Positions 25,681 through 63,987 of a DNA stretch of 64,000 nt are shown in pieces (the first letter of the stretch is position 1; the number at the start of each line of letters is the position of its first letter). The position numbers were made by a program, and so were the translations under genes. This DNA comes from a virus, in the IMG/VR virus record IMGVR_UViG_3300021091_005099, positions 1-64,000 of that record; one strand, written 5' to 3'. The notes beneath the pieces are model-generated. The model did not search any database. It had not been told where the DNA came from and was given only the letters and a program-made list of their open reading frames with translations.

Positions 25681-26487
25681 TTAATTAAAAGTGTATTTTG
25701 TCAAATCAGTTACTGAACTGTTTTTGAAAGCCAATTTCCTATGATGACAATTGCTACAGATGCCACAATTACCAAGATCAACGTCACAGCTAGTTGATTG
25801 ATAGAGCATTGATAATTCATTTAATTTATCGTAAAGGTCAATCACGTCAGATGTGGTCAAGTTTCGAAAAGGTCTTACTGACATCTCATAATCATTCTTG
25901 ATTTGTTCATAATCGATATCTTTCAATACACCGTAAATTTTTCCATTGTTCTTGAACACGTGTTCGAACAACTCAGGGTATCTCACTGAATTTTTTTCCA
26001 GCCATGGTTTCAATTTGTCATTGGTGATACGGCCTCTGTGCCAGCCACTTGCCTTCAACATATCCATGCTCTGCTCATGTATCTTGTTGTAGCCGGCCAG
26101 GATGTATTTCATCTTGCCTTTGTATTTCTGCAACAAAAAATTTTTAAATTCTAAAGAGGCATCTGTGTGCTTCTTATAGATTTTTGAATCCACTGTGAGT
26201 GTATGCACTGCTCTAAACCTTTCAATCCCCTGGGCGAACTTTCTTTTTACAATCTCGAGTTTATCATCGTCCTTATCTTGCGGTAATGTTCCATCGAAAG
26301 AAATTAATTTATCGTTGATGAAAACGACACGTTCCAATCCGTATATTTCTCTAGCTATCACGCACAACAATGTTGATTCAATATCCGCTTCATATATGAC
26401 GCCAATTTTTTCGTCTGGAGAGATCTTTGGAAATTCTTCTAGATCAAATCTAGTTTTATTTTTACCTAACAGGTAGAATTTATTCAT
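25681..26487 (-). CDS. QueC-like (PP-loop, Zn-binding) protein with degenerate ATP-binding loop
   Basis: C-terminal RPFRNLT.SDV...SC...CGICSNC..RK.AF matches the QueC Zn site; the SGGxDS loop is replaced by EADIES. Confidence 0.6.
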   Translation of the reverse strand: MNKFYLLGKNKTRFDLEEFPKISPDEKIGVIYEADIESTLLCVIAREIYGLERVVFINDKLISFDGTLPQDKDDDKLEIVKRKFAQGIERFRAVHTLTVDSKIYKKHTDASLEFKNFLLQKYKGKMKYILAGYNKIHEQSMDMLKASGWHRGRITNDKLKPWLEKNSVRYPELFEHVFKNNGKIYGVLKDIDYEQIKNDYEMSVRPFRNLTTSDVIDLYDKLNELSMLYQSTSCDVDLGNCGICSNCHHRKLAFKNSSVTDLTKYTFN

Positions 26488-27493
26488 GGTCAACCTTTTC
26501 CTTATAATGCCACAAAGTTTTTTGTGGTATCTTTATACCATCAGCCTCAATCACGTGTATCTGCGAACCAGTGCATCTTTGGTGACAAATAGATTTGTCA
26601 TTCTTGTACATGGCTGCCAACCAATCTTGAAACACTGGGTCATTCAATATTTCAAAAATACCACGCTGGTGCAGTGATATTGAATATTTATCTTTGGATA
26701 TCGCCCAGCTGTTCACTTTGTTAAATGCGGAGGCAGTCCAACAACATGGGAACAGTCTGCCCCAGGAATCAACATAAATTTCTTTCCTTTGCTTGTGCAG
26801 GCAGATCAATGCGCCCTTGTGCTGCATGAAGTCGATGTCAAATCTGTCTGCTGTGGGAGGATATATTTTTTTTGTTTTATTGTCTCCGTCGCGATACACA
26901 AATGGTTTATCAAAGTCTTTGAATCTCGCGGAAATTTTTAAAACGAAATCTCGAAAACCCATTTCCTTGGCCATGGATTCAGCTGCCTCCACCTGATGCT
27001 CATTGTGGAAGAATGGTATGAAGAACCATTTGGCATTGGCTCCTGTCTGTATGAAGGCTGCAGCATTGCTCATCAGTTTTTGCCATTGTACTCCAACCCT
27101 ATAGATATGATTCGTGTCCTCCAGGCCGTCTATATGCCACTCCACAAATGAGTGAGGGGTCCGAGCATAGATGCGACCTAACTTTTGCCAAAAATCAGTG
27201 CTGCGTACTCCACCGTTGGTGCTTAAAGTAATTTGGATATTTGAATTGTGCTCCAAAACGTATTCGTGTATCTGCAACAGATCATGAGCTATTGCAGGAT
27301 CCCCATAATTGCCACAAAATTTTATTTTTTTTAATCTACCAATGAATCTTTTGGGAAAAAATTTAACAAAATCTACATAGGATATTTCGTCCTGATTGTC
27401 AAGTATTATTGGGTTATTAGTCCTGGAGCACATGGGGCATTTTGCATTGCAACGGCTTGTGATCTCAACATGGACTGAATCTATTTGGTGCAT
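26480..27493 (-). CDS. Radical SAM protein with C-terminal SPASM/twitch domain
   Basis: EITSRCNAKCPMC (CxxxCxxC); FCGNYGDP; STNG; IDGL; C-terminal C...IYVDSWGRLFPCC...CHQRC; start refined to MHQID on promoter geometry. Confidence 0.88.
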   Translation of the reverse strand: MHQIDSVHVEITSRCNAKCPMCSRTNNPIILDNQDEISYVDFVKFFPKRFIGRLKKIKFCGNYGDPAIAHDLLQIHEYVLEHNSNIQITLSTNGGVRSTDFWQKLGRIYARTPHSFVEWHIDGLEDTNHIYRVGVQWQKLMSNAAAFIQTGANAKWFFIPFFHNEHQVEAAESMAKEMGFRDFVLKISARFKDFDKPFVYRDGDNKTKKIYPPTADRFDIDFMQHKGALICLHKQRKEIYVDSWGRLFPCCWTASAFNKVNSWAISKDKYSISLHQRGIFEILNDPVFQDWLAAMYKNDKSICHQRCTGSQIHVIEADGIKIPQKTLWHYKEKVDHE

Positions 27494-56521: not shown

Positions 56522-57382
56522 TTACGTTCCCCAAGCATTCTTGAACAATGGCACCTGTAATCTATCGCTGTATCTGTAGCCCATTTTCATTGCCAGCTCT
56601 GCAACTGTCCTGTTGTTCATGTGATACACGCTCTCCACACCACCCACGGGCATGAGATAAACGGAACCTCGGAATCCCGCTTTATTATATTCCTTTACGA
56701 CCTCTATGGCTTCATAGGCATCATTGATGTCAACGATCACAAATTTCAAGTACACATGTCCCACTTCACCATACTCCGCTACCACATCGGGCACAATGGC
56801 ATCTTCTCGCTTCTCGCCGCTCACGCTCAATTTTGCGCTCACAGAGAAAGTGATGCTATCTTTGTTCCTACCATGCCTGTGACTCCACTGTGAAAGATAT
56901 CGTTTGAAATCTTGATGAAGTCTCTGTGTGCCATTGGTCTCGAAAGTGATCTCTCTGAGGTCCTGCATCTTGCCGTGCTCCAGTAAATCAGGATATGCTC
57001 TCTGCCAGCCCAGCAATGGCTCGCCGCCCGTGAATATGAAATGCTCATCGACCCATCGCTTGTGTGGCAATATCTCCATGGTCCTCTCCACTATGGCGTC
57101 TGACGTCAGCATGGGAGACAGGTCCTTGAATCTAGGATCCCAGGAGGCATAGCTGTCACAGCCTGTGCTGACCAAAGGCAATTCTCGATAATCTTTGAAT
57201 GGGAATTTTTTATGTTGCTCGTACACCTTGTCATTTTCATCGCTCCTGACCCCTTTGGGTAGGCCGAACCCGGCACAGGTGAAGTTGCAGCCAAATGTTC
57301 GCAGGAATACCGAAGGCACGCCCATGTAGCGCCCCTCTCCCTGTATGCTGTAAAATAGTTCAGCTACTTTTATCTTGCTCAT
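56522..57382 (-). CDS. queE: 7-carboxy-7-deazaguanine synthase (radical SAM)
   Basis: ELFYSIQGEG...PSVFLRTFGCNFTC...CDS; FTGGEP; FETNGT; VSAKL. Confidence 0.9.
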   Translation of the reverse strand: MSKIKVAELFYSIQGEGRYMGVPSVFLRTFGCNFTCAGFGLPKGVRSDENDKVYEQHKKFPFKDYRELPLVSTGCDSYASWDPRFKDLSPMLTSDAIVERTMEILPHKRWVDEHFIFTGGEPLLGWQRAYPDLLEHGKMQDLREITFETNGTQRLHQDFKRYLSQWSHRHGRNKDSITFSVSAKLSVSGEKREDAIVPDVVAEYGEVGHVYLKFVIVDINDAYEAIEVVKEYNKAGFRGSVYLMPVGGVESVYHMNNRTVAELAMKMGYRYSDRLQVPLFKNAWGT

Positions 57383-57506
57383 GCAATGCCTCGACCGCTT
57401 CTAATATCTCTTCCACAGTGTATTTTCCCATTCTCTTTTTTTTAATTTCTGGGTCCTCATCTAAAGTGTACACTTCGTATTCGTTTTCGTCAATCTTGCT
57501 GTTCAT
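57360..57506 (-). CDS. Small hypothetical protein (48 aa, MNSKIDENEYEV...HEQDKSS), not in the ORF track
   Basis: Fills the gap between zf-CHCC and queE and overlaps both. Confidence 0.5.
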   Translation of the reverse strand: MNSKIDENEYEVYTLDEDPEIKKKRMGKYTVEEILEAVEALHEQDKSS

Positions 57507-57651
57507 ATATGAATTTTTTATTGCAATATCCGCAAATGACTTCGTTACTATTGCCTATTGTGTAAAATACAGTGGGGTGTCCACCCCAGTCGTCATCTCC
57601 AAAACATTTGATGTCTCTGGTGTTGACGACCTCGACAGCCTGTTCAGCCAT
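57490..57651 (-). CDS. zf-CHCC zinc-finger protein (53 aa), not in the ORF track
   Basis: MAEQAVEVVNTRDIKCFGDDDWGGHPTVFYTIGNSNEVICGYCNKKFIYEQQD, i.e. C-x8-H-x14-CxxC; coupled to the cupin stop codon. Confidence 0.8.
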   Translation of the reverse strand: MAEQAVEVVNTRDIKCFGDDDWGGHPTVFYTIGNSNEVICGYCNKKFIYEQQD

Positions 57652-58043
57652 CATCTTTTATCTTTTTTATCAAGCCTCACCACATTGCCGCTGCGGAAAT
57701 GGCCCACTGTCTCTCTTTGAATGTCATCATGATTGAACTCTGCCCAGTACAGTTCAAAGGCCACGCCGTCCTCTATTCCCTCGAAGAGATGGAAGTAGCC
57801 TGGCTTGACCTTGGTGAAATCGCCGGGTCCCAATATCGTCTCGTCGATGAGGTCCTGCTGGTCTCTCTGCCAGACCTTGATCTTCATCCGGCCTGACACC
57901 ACGTAGAATCCGTTCCACTTGTGTTTGTGCTGGTGTTTGCTGCACACTCCTCCCGCCCTGAAGTCGATGCGGTGGAATTCCAGCACGCCATTGGCGTGTA
58001 TCAGTTCGGTCTGTCCCCAGATCTTGCCGGCCTTATTTGACAT
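57651..58043 (-). CDS. Cupin-domain protein (mannose-6-phosphate-isomerase-like)
   Basis: KIWG...CSKHQHKHKWNGFYVVSG...GDFTKVKPGYFHLF; start refined to ATG 58043. Confidence 0.8.
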   Translation of the reverse strand: MSNKAGKIWGQTELIHANGVLEFHRIDFRAGGVCSKHQHKHKWNGFYVVSGRMKIKVWQRDQQDLIDETILGPGDFTKVKPGYFHLFEGIEDGVAFELYWAEFNHDDIQRETVGHFRSGNVVRLDKKDKR

Positions 58044-58051
58044 ATCCACAC

Positions 58052-58080
58052 ATTTTAATTGTATTTAGATGATTTGTCAA
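58052..58080 (-). promoter_or_regulatory. Sigma70-type promoter TTGACA-N17-TAAAAT with TAAATA embedded in the spacer
   Basis: Reverse strand reads ttgaca aatcatctaaatacaat taaaat. Confidence 0.65.
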
Positions 58081-58113
58081 GGCAGGTGCTGGTAATGGCA
58101 CCTGCCTCATGAT

Positions 58114-58755
58114 CTATCCAACCAGTTTCCTCTGCAGCTTGTTCTGCAGATACATCAGCAACACTCCATACGCGGGCAAAAAGATTATGAATCCCACAAT
58201 GATTTTGACCAAGGTGTTGTTGAAGGCCACCGCATGCACCCACGGCTGCGGATAGAACGCAGTGTAGAAGAATGTGTAGGTGTCAATGATGTTGGCCGCC
58301 ACAGTGCTGAGGGCCGGAGCCAGCCACCAGTTGCTGGTCCACTTCTCACGTATGTACTGCATCACGTAAACGTCCAGCATGGTGCCCACTGCATATGCGG
58401 TGCCGGATGCCACGCCCACTCTGATTGCGTGTGGGTCCTTCAATATAAGAAGCACAGCCACCGACGCCACTATGGCGGGCAGCATGGCCATGGCCACCAC
58501 CGCCCTGGCGGTGTGCTTGCCCACCAACCGCACGGTGAGATCGCTTGCGACCACCACCAGCGGGAACGTGAAGGCCGCAGCTGCCAATGGGAAGCTGGTC
58601 TGCCAGCCCAGTATGTTGATCTTTTCTGCAAAGAGATTGAAGCGTATGGTCACAAGATAATTGCTAATAGCAATGATCACTGTGTGGAATATCACCAAAT
58701 TCCGCAACAGGCCACGGTCAACATCTTTCAACAGATTGTTTAGATAGTTTGTCAT
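58114..58755 (-). CDS. yhhQ: Queuosine-precursor (preQ0/preQ1) transporter, YhhQ/VUT family
   Basis: IIAISNYLV...AFTFPLVVVASDLTVRLVG...R...AS..AY..G..LDV...WWLAPALST...IDTYTFF; multi-TM; SD AAGGAG before MTNYL. Confidence 0.85.
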   Translation of the reverse strand: MTNYLNNLLKDVDRGLLRNLVIFHTVIIAISNYLVTIRFNLFAEKINILGWQTSFPLAAAAFTFPLVVVASDLTVRLVGKHTARAVVAMAMLPAIVASVAVLLILKDPHAIRVGVASGTAYAVGTMLDVYVMQYIREKWTSNWWLAPALSTVAANIIDTYTFFYTAFYPQPWVHAVAFNNTLVKIIVGFIIFLPAYGVLLMYLQNKLQRKLVG

Positions 58756-58766
58756 GTTTCTCCTTT

Positions 58767-59234
58767 TTAGGTTTGCCATTCCTCCCATGGAAAGACCACC
58801 CACTGCGGCTGTAGACTTTTGTCAATCTCGTAGCCCTGGTAGTCCATTTTGACAGGCGATGGTTTGTTATTGACCACAGCAGCAAAACGCACACGCTCAG
58901 GTTTTCCAAAGTTGTCCACGATGTATTGGAACGTGGCTCCGGTGTCGTTGATGTCGTCAATGATCAAAATCTTTTTCTGAAATGCGTATTCTTTTTCCAG
59001 CACAGAGAGGTTGGGCTTGACTGCATGATCCCTCAGTCGCACGTCCAGCACTGCGTGCTCCTTTTTCAATCTATGTGATAGGTACACTCCTGGCACGCAG
59101 CCACCTCTGTTGATGCCCAGTATAATGCTAGGCATCCACATGGAATGCACCAGCTGATCCTCAATTTGAGTCAGTGCCTGGCGCATCTGCAGTGTGGTAA
59201 AATAAGTTTTTTGCACAGTATCAACCGCTGTCAT
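58767..59234 (-). CDS. Purine phosphoribosyltransferase (Gpt-like)
   Basis: ILGINRGGCVPG; PRPP-binding motif ILIIDDINDTGATF; WVVFPWE. Confidence 0.88.
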   Translation of the reverse strand: MTAVDTVQKTYFTTLQMRQALTQIEDQLVHSMWMPSIILGINRGGCVPGVYLSHRLKKEHAVLDVRLRDHAVKPNLSVLEKEYAFQKKILIIDDINDTGATFQYIVDNFGKPERVRFAAVVNNKPSPVKMDYQGYEIDKSLQPQWVVFPWEEWQT

Positions 59235-59464
59235 TTTAATAGTAATCCTGCCACGTAGATGGCTGTTAATCCTGCATTAAGTGCTATTAGACTGCGTTCT
59301 TGCCACAGTATGCCCACTAGCACCCATATGCCATTGGCCACGCAAAATAGATACACATATACCGGAAACACGTTGAAGGCTGCCAGCGTGGCGGCGCACA
59401 ACAGAACCACTGTTCCGATCCAGGCCAGCGATTGGTAAGGTTTGGTTGGTAATTTACTTGCCAT
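59231..59464 (-). CDS. Small membrane protein with about 3 TM helices
   Basis: 77 aa, almost wholly hydrophobic. Confidence 0.7.
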   Translation of the reverse strand: MASKLPTKPYQSLAWIGTVVLLCAATLAAFNVFPVYVYLFCVANGIWVLVGILWQERSLIALNAGLTAIYVAGLLLK

Positions 59465-60497
59465 CGTAGACCCTGTTGATCACGTTGTTGACCCTCACGA
59501 AGTGAGCGCACTTCGGCATGTCCTTGATACGTCTAGCTCCGATGTAGGTGCAGGTGCTTCTCACACCACCCAATATCTGTTCCACTGTGTCCTTCACAGG
59601 ACCTCGGTCATCCAGCAGCACTGTCTTTCCCTCTGTGCCTCTGTAGCCGTCCTTGCGCATGCCATACCTCTCAAAGGCCGACTCGGAACTCATGCCATAA
59701 AAAACTCTCTTGCCATCACGCAGCTCCAATTCTGATTCTTCATGTGCCGCCAGCATGCCTCCCAGCATCACGAAGTGTGCGCCGGCAGCCAGCGCCTTTG
59801 ACACGTCTCCGGACTGGGTGCAACCTCCATCGGCTATGATGTGCCCGCCAACTCCATTGGCAGCGTCAGCACACTCCACGATAGCGGAGAACTGCGGCAC
59901 TCCCACCCCGGTCTGAGTCCTGGTGGTGCACACGGATCCAGGCCCTATGCCGATCTTGACCACGTCTGCGCCGTTTATTATCAGTTCCTCTGTCATCTCA
60001 GGCGACACGACGTTGCCCGCTATCAGCACCTTGTCTGGGTATTCGGATCTTATCCTCTTCACAAAGTCCACGAACTGTTCGTGGTATGCGTTGGCCACGT
60101 CTATCGTTATGGTTGGTATGTCCGGGAATGCCCGCATGACCTGTTTCAGTGTCTGGTAGTCCTGCGTGTTCTCGTCCCATATGGCTCCCGTTCCCACGCA
60201 CGCAGACACATATTTGAATTTTATGCCTGTGCCCGCGGTCTGCTTCCATTGGTCTATAGTGTAGTGCTTGCGTATCACCGTCAGCATCTTGTAATCCTGT
60301 AGCACGCGTGCCATGGAAAAAGTGCCAACTCCATCCATGTTGCTGGCCATTATTGGTGTGTATGAAAGTTGTTTGCGGCTGTTCCTGAATGTGAAGTCTC
60401 TCGTCATGTCCACGTCTCTGCGAGAGTTAAGCGTGGATCTCTTGGGTTTGAGCAACACGTCGGAATAATCCAGATGCAGGGTGTGATCAATTCGCAT
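59454..60497 (-). CDS. guaC: GMP reductase
   Basis: LDYSDVLLKPKRSTLNSR; PIMASNMDGVGTF; IDVANAY; GIGPGSVCTTR; FYGMSS; EGKTV; ILGGVRSTCTYIGA; 347 aa without CBS domains. Confidence 0.92.
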   Translation of the reverse strand: MRIDHTLHLDYSDVLLKPKRSTLNSRRDVDMTRDFTFRNSRKQLSYTPIMASNMDGVGTFSMARVLQDYKMLTVIRKHYTIDQWKQTAGTGIKFKYVSACVGTGAIWDENTQDYQTLKQVMRAFPDIPTITIDVANAYHEQFVDFVKRIRSEYPDKVLIAGNVVSPEMTEELIINGADVVKIGIGPGSVCTTRTQTGVGVPQFSAIVECADAANGVGGHIIADGGCTQSGDVSKALAAGAHFVMLGGMLAAHEESELELRDGKRVFYGMSSESAFERYGMRKDGYRGTEGKTVLLDDRGPVKDTVEQILGGVRSTCTYIGARRIKDMPKCAHFVRVNNVINRVYDGK

Positions 60498-60765
60498 CCA
60501 TTTCTCCTTCTCTGGTCTTGCACATGTTCAATATGTTGTGGTAGTGATCCCATGCCTGCTTCAAAGCCGGATACTTCTGTCTAAGCTCTTCATCTTTTGA
60601 GGTGTAGAACATGTCTCCCCAATCCATCTGCACGTTGGCCGCCGTGGCCACTGTGCCCACGTTGATGTCTGTGTTGTACAACGTTTCATCCAGCGCAAAG
60701 GTTTCGCTGGCGTCCAGCTCAGGGAAAAGTGATGCAGAAGTCATTGCTGTAAGTTTTTTATCCAT
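60487..60765 (-). CDS. Hypothetical protein
   Basis: DEELRQKYPALKQAWDHY; start refined to MDKKL. Confidence 0.6.
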   Translation of the reverse strand: MDKKLTAMTSASLFPELDASETFALDETLYNTDINVGTVATAANVQMDWGDMFYTSKDEELRQKYPALKQAWDHYHNILNMCKTREGEMDAN

Positions 60766-61510
60766 TTGGCCCACACTGTGCTTCCTGCAGTTGTATGTTG
60801 TGCATAAATTCACTCTTCAATGCCGGGTCCGTCTTCAATAACCCCTTCAGCACCGTGGTCTGCGTGCTGGAATCACCGCTTCTTATCCCTCGGTTCTCGC
60901 AGCAGCCGTGTCTGGCCCTGATGTAGACACCCACTGCCGGGCTTTCCGTGAGCTGTGCTATCTTGTATGCTATCTTCTCTGTGAGCTCTTCCTGCAGATG
61001 TCCTCTCGCGGCCTGGTGCTGCGCTATCCTGGTGTACTTGCTGAGTCCGATCAGACGCTTGCCCGGGAGACATCCGATGTAGCACACGCCCGTCATGGGC
61101 TGATGGTGATGCGAGCACATGCTCTTGATGTCGGACCTGATCACTATCAGCTGATCGTATCTGCCATCTTCGTTGGGAAATGTCGTGACTTCTGGTGGAG
61201 GGTTGTATCTCCCTCCCATGATCTCCGTTATGTACATCTTGGCCAGCCTGCGGCCTGTGCCAACGCTGTTGGGATCATTGGTCCTGTCTATGACCAAGCT
61301 GTCCAGCACAGCGTCGAATTTCGTGGTCAGCTCGTCAATCAGTTTTTCTCTCTCCCCATTTTCAATATATCTGCTGATGTTGTCCGCCGCGAAGAACCTC
61401 TCACCTGACTTCACTATCCTTTCGCGTATCTGCTGGCTGATCGGCTTGTTTTTGTCAGTCCAAGTGTCCATCAAACCCCCTGACATGATATCTTTACGTG
61501 TGTCTGACAT
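60758..61510 (-). CDS. folE: GTP cyclohydrolase I
   Basis: RRLAKMY; SMCSHH; IGLSKYTRIA; LQEELT; ARHGC...RG. Confidence 0.93.
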   Translation of the reverse strand: MSDTRKDIMSGGLMDTWTDKNKPISQQIRERIVKSGERFFAADNISRYIENGEREKLIDELTTKFDAVLDSLVIDRTNDPNSVGTGRRLAKMYITEIMGGRYNPPPEVTTFPNEDGRYDQLIVIRSDIKSMCSHHHQPMTGVCYIGCLPGKRLIGLSKYTRIAQHQAARGHLQEELTEKIAYKIAQLTESPAVGVYIRARHGCCENRGIRSGDSSTQTTVLKGLLKTDPALKSEFMHNIQLQEAQCGPNG

Positions 61511-62550
61511 CAGTTAAATTCTTTTTGGTTAATCTTGTTATACCATTTTACAGCAGTGGCCACGATGTTGTCAATAGAACTGTGTGATGGCCGCCAGCCA
61601 AGTTCTGTGTTCGCGCGTGTGTTGTCGGCCACCAGCACAGGTGGATCGCCCGCCCTGCGCGGCATTTCCATTATCTTGATGTGCCCCACGTATTTTTTTA
61701 TGGTCTCCAACAGTTGCCTGTTGCTTGTGCTGATGCCGGAGCCCAGGTTATAAGTCTCACAGATCACATCACCAGACGCTCGCTGCAGTGCCAGCACGTG
61801 CGCCACCGCGAGATCGGTCACGTGGACATAGTCTCTCACACAGGTCCCATCCGCTGTGTCAAAATCAGTGCCAAACAGCTTGAATTCTCGATCTCTATGT
61901 GCTGCATCTATGGCCAATGGTATGATATGCGTCTCGTCCTCGCGCAGTTCACCGATCTCGCTGTCAGCGTCCGCTCCCGCGGCGTTGAAATAGCGCAGGC
62001 TGACGCTGCTCAGTCCATAGGCCACATGATAGTCCTTCAATACATTTTCAATCATCAACTTGCTCCTGCCATACGGGTTGATTGGATGCAGGTTGATGTC
62101 ATCATCCCTGGCCACTCCGTTGGCGGGAATGCCATACACTGCAGCGCTTGAAGAGAAGACCACCTTGTTGATGCCTAGATCTCTCAACTTGTCCAACAAC
62201 TGCACAGTCATTATCACGTTGTTCTTGTAATATTTAGATGGATCTCTCACAGACTCTCCCACCTGGGTGTGCGCGGCGAAATGTATACAGGAGTCTATGT
62301 TGTATCTGTTGATGATTTCCTGCAGGAAGTCAGTGTCTCTGGGCAGATGGCATTCAAATGCCGGTCCAAACTGCGTGGCCCAGGGTTTGGTCTTGATGTC
62401 TCTGTCAACCACGACCGGAGTGAACCCATTCTTGGTCAGCTCCTTGGCGGTGTGAGAACCGATGTAGCCGGCCCCTCCCACTACCAGCACCGACTTGCTG
62501 ATGCCTTTAGTACTTGGCTTCGGGCGCATACGTCCTGTAGTCGCTTCCAT
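61510..62550 (-). CDS. galE: UDP-glucose 4-epimerase
   Basis: GGAGYIGSHT; HFAA..QVGESV; FSSSAAVYG; PYGRSK; LRYFNAAGA; DGTCVRDYVHV. Confidence 0.92.
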   Translation of the reverse strand: MEATTGRMRPKPSTKGISKSVLVVGGAGYIGSHTAKELTKNGFTPVVVDRDIKTKPWATQFGPAFECHLPRDTDFLQEIINRYNIDSCIHFAAHTQVGESVRDPSKYYKNNVIMTVQLLDKLRDLGINKVVFSSSAAVYGIPANGVARDDDINLHPINPYGRSKLMIENVLKDYHVAYGLSSVSLRYFNAAGADADSEIGELREDETHIIPLAIDAAHRDREFKLFGTDFDTADGTCVRDYVHVTDLAVAHVLALQRASGDVICETYNLGSGISTSNRQLLETIKKYVGHIKIMEMPRRAGDPPVLVADNTRANTELGWRPSHSSIDNIVATAVKWYNKINQKEFN

Positions 62551-63685
62551 CTCTCCTCCATTGCTCTCCCTTGCCTGTAATGATGTCGATCATTCTGTCC
62601 ACCGTGCCGTCGGTCCAATCCGATATCTTGCCCATGTTTGGCGATGGTGCCTGCAACAACACTTTCAATTTTTGCATGGCGTCTCTGCTGCTCCATGGCA
62701 CGTACATCCTGCTGTCGTCATTGGCGAATGTTTCTGGGAATGACCTATATGCCGGAAAAAGAACATTGCAGCCCAGTGTGTCAGCTTCGGACACTGTGTT
62801 TGACACCCAGTCCTGCAGTGCGCAGTTGAACAGCACTCTGGTGTCATTCAACAGTTCATAGTAGTCATTTTTTTTCAAGTGTTCGTAAATTTTAATTTTG
62901 CCAGACTTCTCCAAGTGCCTTGCGCGATGAACATAGTTTATGTTGTTGGATCGCAATGGTCCGCCACAGTAAACGGCGAACTCCGTGGCAGGCAATGACT
63001 CGTCGGCAAGCCATTGCTCGATTAGATCCATGAAAAACCCTGGCTGCTTTTCCTGATCCCATCTGGCGGCGTAGCCAACTCTCATTGTTCTTTGATCAAA
63101 TGGTCTGATGGTCTTGATTCTCTCCAGCACTTCCTGTTTGCCATAACTCAGACCGGAAATGTTGTAGATGGGAGCGCGCCAGTTGGCTATTCTCATATGT
63201 GCCACCATCTCCTCGTTCGTGGCAAGTATATGCACGTTGGGTATCTCGTTGCACATCTGTTCATACAGGCTCATCCATCGGCTCATGCGCCAGACATGCA
63301 CGAAGTCATCTGGATCTATGGACTGTGCCAGGCACCTTAGATATATCCTCGGCCTGTACTTCTCTGGCGACTGTTGTATGATGTAGGGCAGCGATTCCAT
63401 GCCCGGTTGGAACATGTCCTCAAAAAATATCACGTCATCAGAAGTAACTTCTCCAGATTTCATCATGCGAACCAAATTCATCATCTGGCTCATGCCGAAA
63501 TAGCTCCTGCCGTGTGCGTCCAGCACCTGTCCAGTCACTATGGCTTTGGAATTGTCTATGGTGGTGCCGGGCACGACCACGTAGTCTATGCCGCGTTTCT
63601 TGTAGATTCTCTCGGTCCAATCGGTTAACTGTAGCGTGTAGCGACCTTCATAGGGCTCCAGGCCCATGTAAAATATTTTCATCAC
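62507..63685 (-). CDS. Glycosyltransferase (GT-B fold, GT4-like)
   Basis: YAARWDQEKQPGFF; YYELL...VLFNCALQDWVSNTVSEADTLGC.VLFPAYRSFPE. Confidence 0.75.
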   Translation of the reverse strand: MMKIFYMGLEPYEGRYTLQLTDWTERIYKKRGIDYVVVPGTTIDNSKAIVTGQVLDAHGRSYFGMSQMMNLVRMMKSGEVTSDDVIFFEDMFQPGMESLPYIIQQSPEKYRPRIYLRCLAQSIDPDDFVHVWRMSRWMSLYEQMCNEIPNVHILATNEEMVAHMRIANWRAPIYNISGLSYGKQEVLERIKTIRPFDQRTMRVGYAARWDQEKQPGFFMDLIEQWLADESLPATEFAVYCGGPLRSNNINYVHRARHLEKSGKIKIYEHLKKNDYYELLNDTRVLFNCALQDWVSNTVSEADTLGCNVLFPAYRSFPETFANDDSRMYVPWSSRDAMQKLKVLLQAPSPNMGKISDWTDGTVDRMIDIITGKGEQWRRDGSDYRTYAPEAKY

Positions 63686-63987
63686 GTGCTTACAATCACC
63701 TCCTTCTGGCTCTTCTTACCTACCAGCACGTGGGTGTGATACCCATGCATGGGATTGGTTTTCAAATATCTCATTAGGTCCGCCAAAATATTGTCATTGC
63801 CTTCATGTATTAAAAATTGATACAACGGTTCTGCTCGTCCATACAATGTCTCGTTAGAATCTAAAACTATGAATCCTCCCCATTCCACGGCAAAATCACT
63901 GAGATAATTTTCTCCGTAATGACGGAAGGTTTGATTGTTATTGATGTTAACGCCAGCATGTGGTTCAAATACTAATCTTATTCTCAT
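63682..63987 (-). CDS. Hypothetical protein
   Basis: 101-aa ORF overlapping the glycosyltransferase start; upstream AAGGA. Confidence 0.55.
   Translation of the reverse strand: MRIRLVFEPHAGVNINNNQTFRHYGENYLSDFAVEWGGFIVLDSNETLYGRAEPLYQFLIHEGNDNILADLMRYLKTNPMHGYHTHVLVGKKSQKEVIVST

Follow-up and report, generated by a model that had tools for sequence, protein, structure and literature searches.

A run of minus-strand genes at positions 56522-63685 of a viral DNA stretch (IMG/VR record IMGVR_UViG_3300021091_005099) probably encodes the precursor-supply and purine-handling half of a 7-deazaguanine DNA-modification module that is of the DpdL type, lacks QueC, and contains conserved parts not described before. 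The run includes genes for QueE, FolE, a purine phosphoribosyltransferase (PRTase), the GMP reductase GuaC, the epimerase GalE, and a glycosyltransferase (GT). The stretch analyzed (hereafter, the window) is the first 64 kb (64,000 nt) of a 113,993-bp IMG/VR phage contig; coordinates up to 64,000 are those of the window, and those past it are contig coordinates. The contig is ~32% complete according to CheckV, pointing to a jumbo-sized genome near 350 kb; its family-B DNA polymerase (PolB) is T4-like (phrog_262), and the nearest isolates are Sinorhizobium phage Phosso (50% identity) and Agrobacterium phage Atu_ph07. The source is an uncultured marine jumbo T4-like phage, and the module lies within its replication gene block (PolB to RNase H).

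We found that the run continues past the end of the 56522-63685 segment, with a DpdL homolog 0.6 kb away and a gene for a DpdA-like enzyme with a tRNA-guanine transglycosylase (TGT) fold 1.8 kb away, the latter next to a sliding clamp and PolB (aa, amino acids; AF2, AlphaFold2; SAM, S-adenosylmethionine):

Contig 63984-64343, minus: hypothetical protein
Contig 64303-64725, minus: DpdL homolog, 140 aa, with the LxxxHRHxF motif
Contig 64722-65258, minus: 178-aa protein conserved with the module
Contig 65279-65530, minus: DUF465 protein
Contig 65481-66926, minus: TGT-fold DpdA-like enzyme, 482 aa (AF2 model with Foldseek and VIA)
Contig 66926-67663, minus: sliding-clamp homolog, 245 aa (homologous to a Phosso protein annotated as a sliding clamp and to PA5oct EST35_0314)
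Contig 67731-68549, minus: class I SAM methyltransferase (Methyltransf_11/23/25)
Contig 68551-71217, minus: PolB (phrog_262)

The sequence LxxxHRHxF, which replaces the CxxxHGH of QueD, is the defining signature of DpdL, a proposed decarboxylase of 7-carboxy-7-deazaguanine (CDG) (Cui et al., PMC10516641). In the 140-aa protein, it reads LGHPHRHIF and is invariant in 14 homologs; the protein is 57% identical to its ACP17 counterpart (E 4e-37) and 30% identical to phiST gp040 (E 6e-8), both of which bear the name DpdL in PMC10516641. A search of the DpdL profile against the PDB returned no match.

The DpdA-like open reading frame (ORF), called at 532 aa, had no match in sequence searches against Pfam, PHROG, and PDB, nor did a hidden Markov model of 65 homologs match the PDB, and its TGT fold was seen only via the AF2 model (pLDDT 93, pTM 0.92) with Foldseek and VIA. 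Specifically, the top 50 Foldseek matches were all tRNA-guanine transglycosylases (E 1.7e-8), and VIA gave Z scores of 18-19.7 over ~300 residues, the best being a Z of 19.7 against 2ash (root-mean-square deviation 4.5, 306 residues). The motifs GDSGGFQ, TLDxPT, VLQG, HxLG, and SYDS are conserved across the 65 diverse homologs, with DSGGFQ invariant. Because these homologs are ~482 aa long, fitting a Met at contig position 66926, the upstream TTG start of the 532-aa ORF is probably wrong. Profile alignment with hhalign gave a 96% probability against ACP17 DpdA, which is itself 36% identical to nt-1 DpdA2, and 64% (remote) against phiST DpdA3; by sequence, the enzyme would thus be placed nearer DpdA2 (ACP17/nt-1 type) than DpdA3, with a predicted activity on DNA. 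Its C-terminal peptide (NNFSSLFEGG; SNFENLFE in the homolog from locus L057) is similar to that of PolB (NTFNRLFEVA), and the two tails are consistent with a common clamp-binding tail. Proteins of the DpdA-like family abound in marine metagenomes (more than 7,800).

These features make it very likely that the module modifies DNA guanine via the DpdA-like enzyme. Base exchange on DNA, the characterized route, is encoded and appears to be tied to the replisome. The earlier note on this DNA had pointed out that no dpdA/tgt, queD, or intact queC lies within the window; this is literally true of the window but misleading, since the DpdL homolog and the TGT-fold gene lie just past its end. Its proposal of pre-replicative incorporation was built on the absence of DpdA and does not hold up: a DpdA-like gene with a PolB-like tail is found 1.8 kb on, adjoining the clamp and PolB genes, so the known base-exchange route is available and a pre-replicative one is not required.

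The earlier note had also named a simpler alternative, namely auxiliary metabolism that supplies the host with tRNA-queuosine precursors and salvages purines, leaving the DNA unmodified. YhhQ, a relative of which is encoded in the run, is mentioned in PMC6884629, by citation, as importing the queuosine precursors preQ0/preQ1 in E. coli, and GuaC and Gpt-type PRTases are ordinary salvage enzymes, with GuaC occurring in other large phages. Against this alternative, no QueC, QueF, or tRNA-type TGT was found, DpdL and a DNA-replication-linked TGT-fold enzyme are encoded in the same run, and homologous modules accompany resistance to restriction at G-containing sites in phage PA5oct and 2′-deoxy-7-deazaguanosine (dDG) in phiST DNA. 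We therefore regard auxiliary metabolism as highly improbable and read the cluster as a DNA 7-deazaguanine modification system, the reading that the earlier note had put first.

Gene run in and beyond the window

Gene identities were taken from the ORF list and from profile searches against Pfam, NCBIfam, and PHROGs. Conservation was followed in 80 IMG/VR loci gathered with the GT as bait (69-97% GT identity), where most gaps in the counts are contig ends. All genes named in the earlier note are present on the minus strand where it had placed them, its "3-TM protein" being a DUF6552 protein:

56522-57382, minus: QueE-like radical SAM enzyme (7-carboxy-7-deazaguanine synthase); phrog_2076, E 3.9e-49, full length
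57360-57506, minus: 48-aa ORF, probably not a gene; conserved in 2/80 related loci
57490-57654, minus: zf-CHCC zinc-finger protein, 54 aa; PF10276, 36.8 bits, above cut-off
57651-58049, minus: Cupin_2 protein, 132 aa; PF07883, 30.7 bits; phrog_7851
58114-58803, minus: YhhQ/Vut_1 family protein (7-deazaguanine precursor transporter family); TIGR00697, 86.4 bits (cut-off 50.95); PF02592, 75.7 bits
58767-59234, minus: Gpt/XPRT-like purine PRTase; PF00156, 47.9 bits
59231-59464, minus: DUF6552 small membrane protein; PF20189, 42.8 bits
59454-60497, minus: GMP reductase GuaC; NF003470, 466 bits (cut-off 397)
60487-60813, minus: hypothetical protein, 108 aa; no family match in Pfam, NCBIfam, or PHROGs
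60758-61510, minus: GTP cyclohydrolase I FolE; PF01227, 127 bits; phrog_2197
61510-62550, minus: UDP-hexose 4-epimerase GalE; TIGR01179, 351.6 bits (cut-off 262.3)
62507-63685, minus: GT4-like (GT-B) glycosyltransferase; sub-threshold PF13524 match and GT4 motifs
63682-63987, minus: hypothetical protein, 101 aa; no Pfam/PHROG family match; the run goes on past the window end

Neighboring genes overlap or abut throughout and therefore form a single co-oriented run, in which each gene from GuaC through DUF6552 and PRTase to YhhQ overlaps the next: the DUF6552 gene overlaps both the GuaC and PRTase genes, and the yhhQ start overlaps the PRTase stop. The N-terminal signature of QueE fits TIGR03365 and related models, and the protein is 46% identical to the QueE of BUCT-ZZ01. 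FolE scored 131 bits against NF006824, under the cut-off of that equivalog model, with a clear family domain. In comparison with loci L011-L056, QueE is just 35-43% and FolE 40-43% identical, though neighboring genes are 70-90% identical; judged by sequence, two distinct QueE/FolE types are swapped within one clade.

Some members of the run are conserved less widely. The 48-aa ORF was kept in so few loci that it is probably not a gene, and the zf-CHCC protein, present in just 1/80 loci, is accessory. DUF6552 occurs in 16/80 loci and is located elsewhere in some relatives, and the 108-aa hypothetical protein occurs in 45/80 and has a weak homolog in the PA5oct module (E 1.8e-5). Beyond the window, the SAM methyltransferase (67731-68549) is found in 60/80 loci and is absent from the PA5oct, Phosso, and ACP17 modules. 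The 178-aa protein has homologs in ACP17, next to the FolE gene, and in PA5oct, at a distance of 28 kb from the module; hhalign against the Phosso "glycosylase" in the same position was negative. Its AF2 model (pLDDT 82) gave no Foldseek match at E <= 0.001, and a wide VIA search yielded Z scores of only ~6, with three QueE structures in the top rows; this weak likeness to a cluster-less, partial QueE barrel is too slight for the protein to be called QueE-like.

A search of the contig, which the earlier note had proposed for the rest of the genome, uncovered the DpdA-like gene past the window and neither queD nor queC on the 114-kb contig. For QueC, no match above threshold was obtained in the contig or in four relatives up to 65% complete. 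One minus-strand ORF of 270 aa at 25681-26493 was considered as a QueC candidate and rejected, as it has a C-terminal match of 18.5 bits (cut-off 22) and no PHROG; it adjoins a radical-SAM-like ORF (26490-27400, minus; phrog_21308), 30 kb from the module.

Glycosyltransferase and GalE

Among the 80 loci, the GT was found in 80, GalE in 78, DpdL and the DpdA-like enzyme in 75 each, FolE in 72, PolB in 71, and the 178-aa protein in 70. The GT is at least as conserved as PolB (69-72% versus 56-63% identity in a distant subclade). In isolates, all 16 records with a GT match carry DpdL, adjacent or no more than two genes off; these are PA5oct-like phages, ACP17, Xanthomonas phages BUDD/X1, and the cyanophage (Synechococcus phage) BUCT-ZZ01. 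In Phosso, the GT homolog at the corresponding position has diverged further (hhalign 100%, E 2e-42), so that the GT stands next to DpdL, or no more than two genes from it, in six lineages that otherwise differ (the marine clade, PA5oct, ACP17, Xanthomonas BUDD/X1, BUCT-ZZ01, and Phosso). The co-occurrence of the GT with que genes across phages, which the earlier note had set as its own test, is thus seen in the IMG/VR loci, the isolates, and Phosso. Moreover, the GT accompanies two transglycosylase types, DpdA2-like in ACP17, BUCT-ZZ01, and Xanthomonas phages and PA5oct-like in this phage, which argues for a functional tie rather than simple inheritance.

The protein itself resembles GT4 enzymes, which are typified by a C-terminal EX7E motif and an R/K phosphate-binding motif. 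RxxxEKQP is invariant in nine GT sequences, including those of PA5oct and ACP17, and (E/D)x7E is kept, reading QDWVSNTVSE in the window GT and QETLGIGFYE in the PA5oct GT; the Atlas neighbors of the GT carry PF00534 (Glycos_transf_1) in 21-92% of members. Compared by sequence with the T4 DNA glucosyltransferase families, the GT had no Pfam match at E <= 0.01. 5-Hydroxymethylcytosine or 5-hydroxymethyluracil is an unlikely target, as relatives carry only ordinary ThyA and no hydroxymethylase was found in them. In BUCT-ZZ01 (L089:9010-10353), a second GT-like protein of 447 aa adjoins the DpdA2-like gene besides the conserved GT, with a Glyco_trans_1_4 match of 24.6 bits, under the cut-off of 27.

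GalE directly follows the GT in 78/80 loci, and here the two genes overlap by 44 nt. The equivalents of S124, Y149, and K153 are kept in 77/77 GalE sequences, and the position of E. coli Tyr299 is occupied by Leu in 73/77 and by Val in the others. Tyr299 is the gatekeeper residue in E. coli GalE, and its lack bears on the use of N-acetylated UDP-hexoses. Given Leu or Val at this position, the enzyme could conceivably use such sugars, namely UDP-N-acetylgalactosamine or UDP-N-acetylglucosamine.

On balance, the evidence favors a role for the GT in the deazaguanine pathway, and base glycosylation is a plausible candidate step; that the final DNA base carries a sugar is a tentative proposition. 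In the literature that we searched, no account of DNA with a glycosylated deazaguanine was found.

Purine handling and the proposed pathway

The purine PRTase was present in all 48 related loci that span FolE to QueE, a set that represents perhaps four lineages. Homologs in isolates were found in 15 records, 10 of which are phiST-like Cellulophaga phages, Flavobacterium immuto phages, and BUCT-ZZ01; in phiST and immuto_2-6A, 100% of DNA guanine is replaced. The PRTase thus belongs with the module, as the earlier note had supposed. The nearest solved structures are the Pyrococcus horikoshii purine PRTase 1vdm (E 1.4e-14) and E. coli xanthine-guanine PRTase, and the canonical purine PRTase motif is intact, with DDxxD(T/S)G invariant in more than 40 homologs.

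In comparison, GuaC is only loosely tied to the module, contrary to its place in the earlier note's proposal: it occurs in 40/48 loci, has another position in some (upstream of PolB in L076), and is also encoded by phages without detected module homologs. GuaC without QueD was found in 40/48 loci and QueD without GuaC in 8/48, and the two never occurred together. Within relatives G001-G004, QueD lies inside the cluster. The cupin, present in 36/40 QueD-less loci and in 0/8 QueD-bearing ones, sits roughly at the place that QueD has in the latter. The mutual exclusion of QueD and GuaC and the cupin pattern could reflect lineage history or functional replacement; spread over perhaps four lineages, the exclusion is a lead, not a statistic.

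One alternative to base exchange, a sharper form of the earlier note's proposal, is a nucleotide route, in which the PRTase condenses CDG or 7-deazaguanine with phosphoribosyl pyrophosphate (PRPP), DpdL decarboxylates the product, and the nucleotide is reduced and incorporated by PolB, with GuaC either draining GMP or converting 7-deaza-GMP to 7-deaza-IMP toward 7-deazaadenine nucleotides. Tubercidin synthesis offers a precedent: TubE joins CDG to PRPP, TubD, a GMP-reductase homolog, deaminates reductively, and a decarboxylase and host PurA/PurB finish the path (PMC6112128); toyocamycin clusters bear an identical set of Pfam families. FolE, QueE, PRTase, a putative decarboxylase, and GuaC are likewise encoded in one run, with overlapping ends from GuaC through DUF6552 and PRTase to YhhQ, and the PRTase tracks phages with 100% replacement. 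This route is opposed by the TGT-fold enzyme with a PolB-like tail that is encoded by the clamp in the same run (75/80 loci), by the lack of GuaC in the 8/48 loci that keep the PRTase, and by Cui, Hutinet et al. (2023, PMC10516641), who concluded that every case known so far is post-replicative. No UbiD (PF01977), PurA (PF00709), or module-linked MazG was matched in five phage records, which are fragments (PurB was not searched for); host enzymes or DpdL could stand in for the missing UbiD and PurA, and in relatives MazG lies 45-50 kb from the module and was not used as evidence. In addition, the third Asp of the PRTase's DDxxD motif, a residue that contacts N7 in purine PRTases, is retained. 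Taken together, we consider the nucleotide route improbable. Recycling of expelled guanine is slightly favored over a TubE-like deazapurine reaction as the role of the PRTase; the computed evidence does not separate the two.

From what was observed directly (gene identities, TGT fold, DpdL motif, and co-occurrence patterns), we infer the substrates, step order, and final base of a base-exchange pathway as follows. FolE and QueE would convert GTP to CDG, with the QueD step coming from an unseen phage gene or the host, and the DpdL homolog would convert CDG to the base to be inserted (7-deazaguanine in phiST). The DpdA-like enzyme, encoded beside the sliding clamp, would then swap that base for guanine in phage DNA. 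The GT4-like GT, supplied by the translationally coupled GalE, would most likely add a hexose to deazaguanine or to a pathway intermediate. The Gpt-like PRTase, plus GuaC in this lineage, would handle the purine flux of wholesale replacement, the simplest role for the PRTase being to return expelled guanine to GMP and on to GTP for FolE, or via GuaC to IMP. The most elaborate version, in which DNA guanine is replaced by a hexose- or N-acetylhexosamine-bearing 7-deazaguanine, is a possibility that we hold only tentatively. There, DpdL or some other tailoring would provide the base, a clamp-tethered DpdA-like enzyme would insert it, and the GT4-like enzyme would decorate it with GalE's UDP-sugar. 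In a rarer variant of this version, by analogy with tubercidin synthesis, the PRTase and GuaC would also feed 7-deazapurine nucleotides.

Several observations weigh against this pathway or its sugar step. The CDG pathway is incomplete as seen: QueD had no PF01242 match on the 114-kb contig (~32% of the genome), tblastn with the BUCT, ACP17, and phiST QueD sequences gave no match there, QueD was not found on the 139-kb relative G005 either, and no QueD substitute was identifiable among the small hypothetical proteins. XacN1, Cr30, and other large phages that are not known to modify G, and in which no homologs of module genes were detected, also encode GuaC homologs. No Pfam family matched the GT above threshold (best PF13524, 20.3 bits; cut-off 25), and the co-occurrence counts inside the marine clade are not phylogenetically independent. 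In loci L057 and L059, a 440-aa radical SAM enzyme (CNLRCVMC) and a 289-aa protein (L057:7788-9964) take the place of DpdL and the 178-aa protein, and the GT, GalE, FolE, and the DpdA-like enzyme are kept; the GT is therefore tied to the module and not to DpdL chemistry specifically, and the swap suggests a different C7 chemistry. Finally, C7 of 7-deazaguanine offers no obvious hydroxyl or amine group for sugar attachment, and phiST makes plain dDG without a homolog of this GT.

The last two points speak for a further alternative, in which the module makes plain dDG as in phiST, and the GT and GalE act on a protein, lipid, or small molecule, or the GT-like protein is a non-catalytic DpdA partner. 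Specifically, phiST reaches 100% dDG with FolE, QueD, QueE, DpdL, and DpdA3, and the typical acceptor group is missing on 7-deazaguanine. It is countered by the closeness of the GT to DpdL or DpdA (adjacent or at most two genes off) in six phage lineages, by GT conservation at least equal to that of PolB with RxxxEKQP and (E/D)x7E kept, and by a reconstitution in which ACP17 DpdL and DpdA alone gave no dDG in E. coli, leading the authors to suspect that further enzymes were missing (PMC10516641). We rate plain dDG with an unrelated GT as rather unlikely and retain a role for the GT in the deazaguanine pathway.

7-Deazaguanine DNA modifications shield phages from restriction enzymes and CRISPR, and the DpdL branch is the least understood among them, with a putative decarboxylase and a failed reconstitution of ACP17 DpdL and DpdA. 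The present analysis names likely missing players: the GT, the 178-aa protein, and the purine PRTase accompany DpdL or the DpdA-like enzyme in phages unrelated to one another. Should the base indeed carry the sugar, this would constitute a new class of DNA hypermodification and the first glycosylated purine in any DNA, and the system would be common to abundant marine jumbo phages and the cultured PA5oct, ACP17, BUCT-ZZ01, and Phosso. Since four cultured phages carry the module, the question is directly testable.

Comparison with known systems

The α- and β-glucosyltransferases of T4, which act on 5-hydroxymethylcytosine DNA, are, like the present GT, phage GT-B enzymes in a T4-like replication context, and they place a UDP-hexose sugar on a modified base, as it would. 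Unlike them, the GT described here has no match to their sequence families, its target would be a purine, and no hydroxymethylase was found.

The tubercidin and toyocamycin clusters (TubC/A/B/E/F/D; ToyD/B/C/M/H/E) also combine FolE, QueE, a PF00156 PRTase, a decarboxylation step, and a PF00478 GMP-reductase homolog. In contrast to the phage module, these Streptomyces pathways make small molecules, with a free nucleoside as end product, rely on a UbiD decarboxylase, and lack a TGT-fold enzyme; deazapurines are only candidate substrates of the phage PRTase and GuaC. In huimycin synthesis, the GT4-clan enzyme HuiG (PF13439) puts a sugar on a 7-deazapurine base after the methyltransferase HuiC (PF08241), and the phage run also has a class I SAM methyltransferase; unlike the phage system, huimycin synthesis starts from preQ0 and UDP-N-acetylglucosamine and yields a free-base natural product. 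By analogy, tubercidin and huimycin are chemical precedents, not evidence of orthology.

The phiST system is a closer counterpart. This DpdL-type dDG system (FolE, QueD, QueE, DpdL, and DpdA3) likewise lacks QueC and has FolE and QueE, and it shares with the present phage the LxxxHRHxF QueD paralog, a divergent TGT-fold transglycosylase, and a location beside replication genes; its DNA holds dDG at 100%, with DpdL as the proposed enzyme (Cui, Hutinet et al. 2023, PMC10516641). A Gpt-like PRTase is encoded as well, but elsewhere in the phiST genome. Relative to phiST, the present phage adds the GT4-like GT, GalE, the 178-aa protein, GuaC, YhhQ, and the cupin, no QueD was seen on its contig, no MazG or kinase stands beside its DpdL, and its transglycosylase, at 482 aa, is remote from DpdA3 (hhalign 64%).

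The backbone of the module is found in the same order in the Pseudomonas jumbo phage PA5oct (Wroclawvirus): PolB, a clamp-like protein, a DpdA-like enzyme (40% identity), a GT homolog, DpdL (55%), QueE, and RNase H. In contrast to the present phage, the PA5oct module is without GalE, GuaC, YhhQ, and cupin, and its GT is only ~22% identical. Our search of the literature did not find the chemical nature of its modified G published; PA5oct DNA resists enzymes that cut at G-containing sites, from which its authors infer a modified G (PMC12191111).

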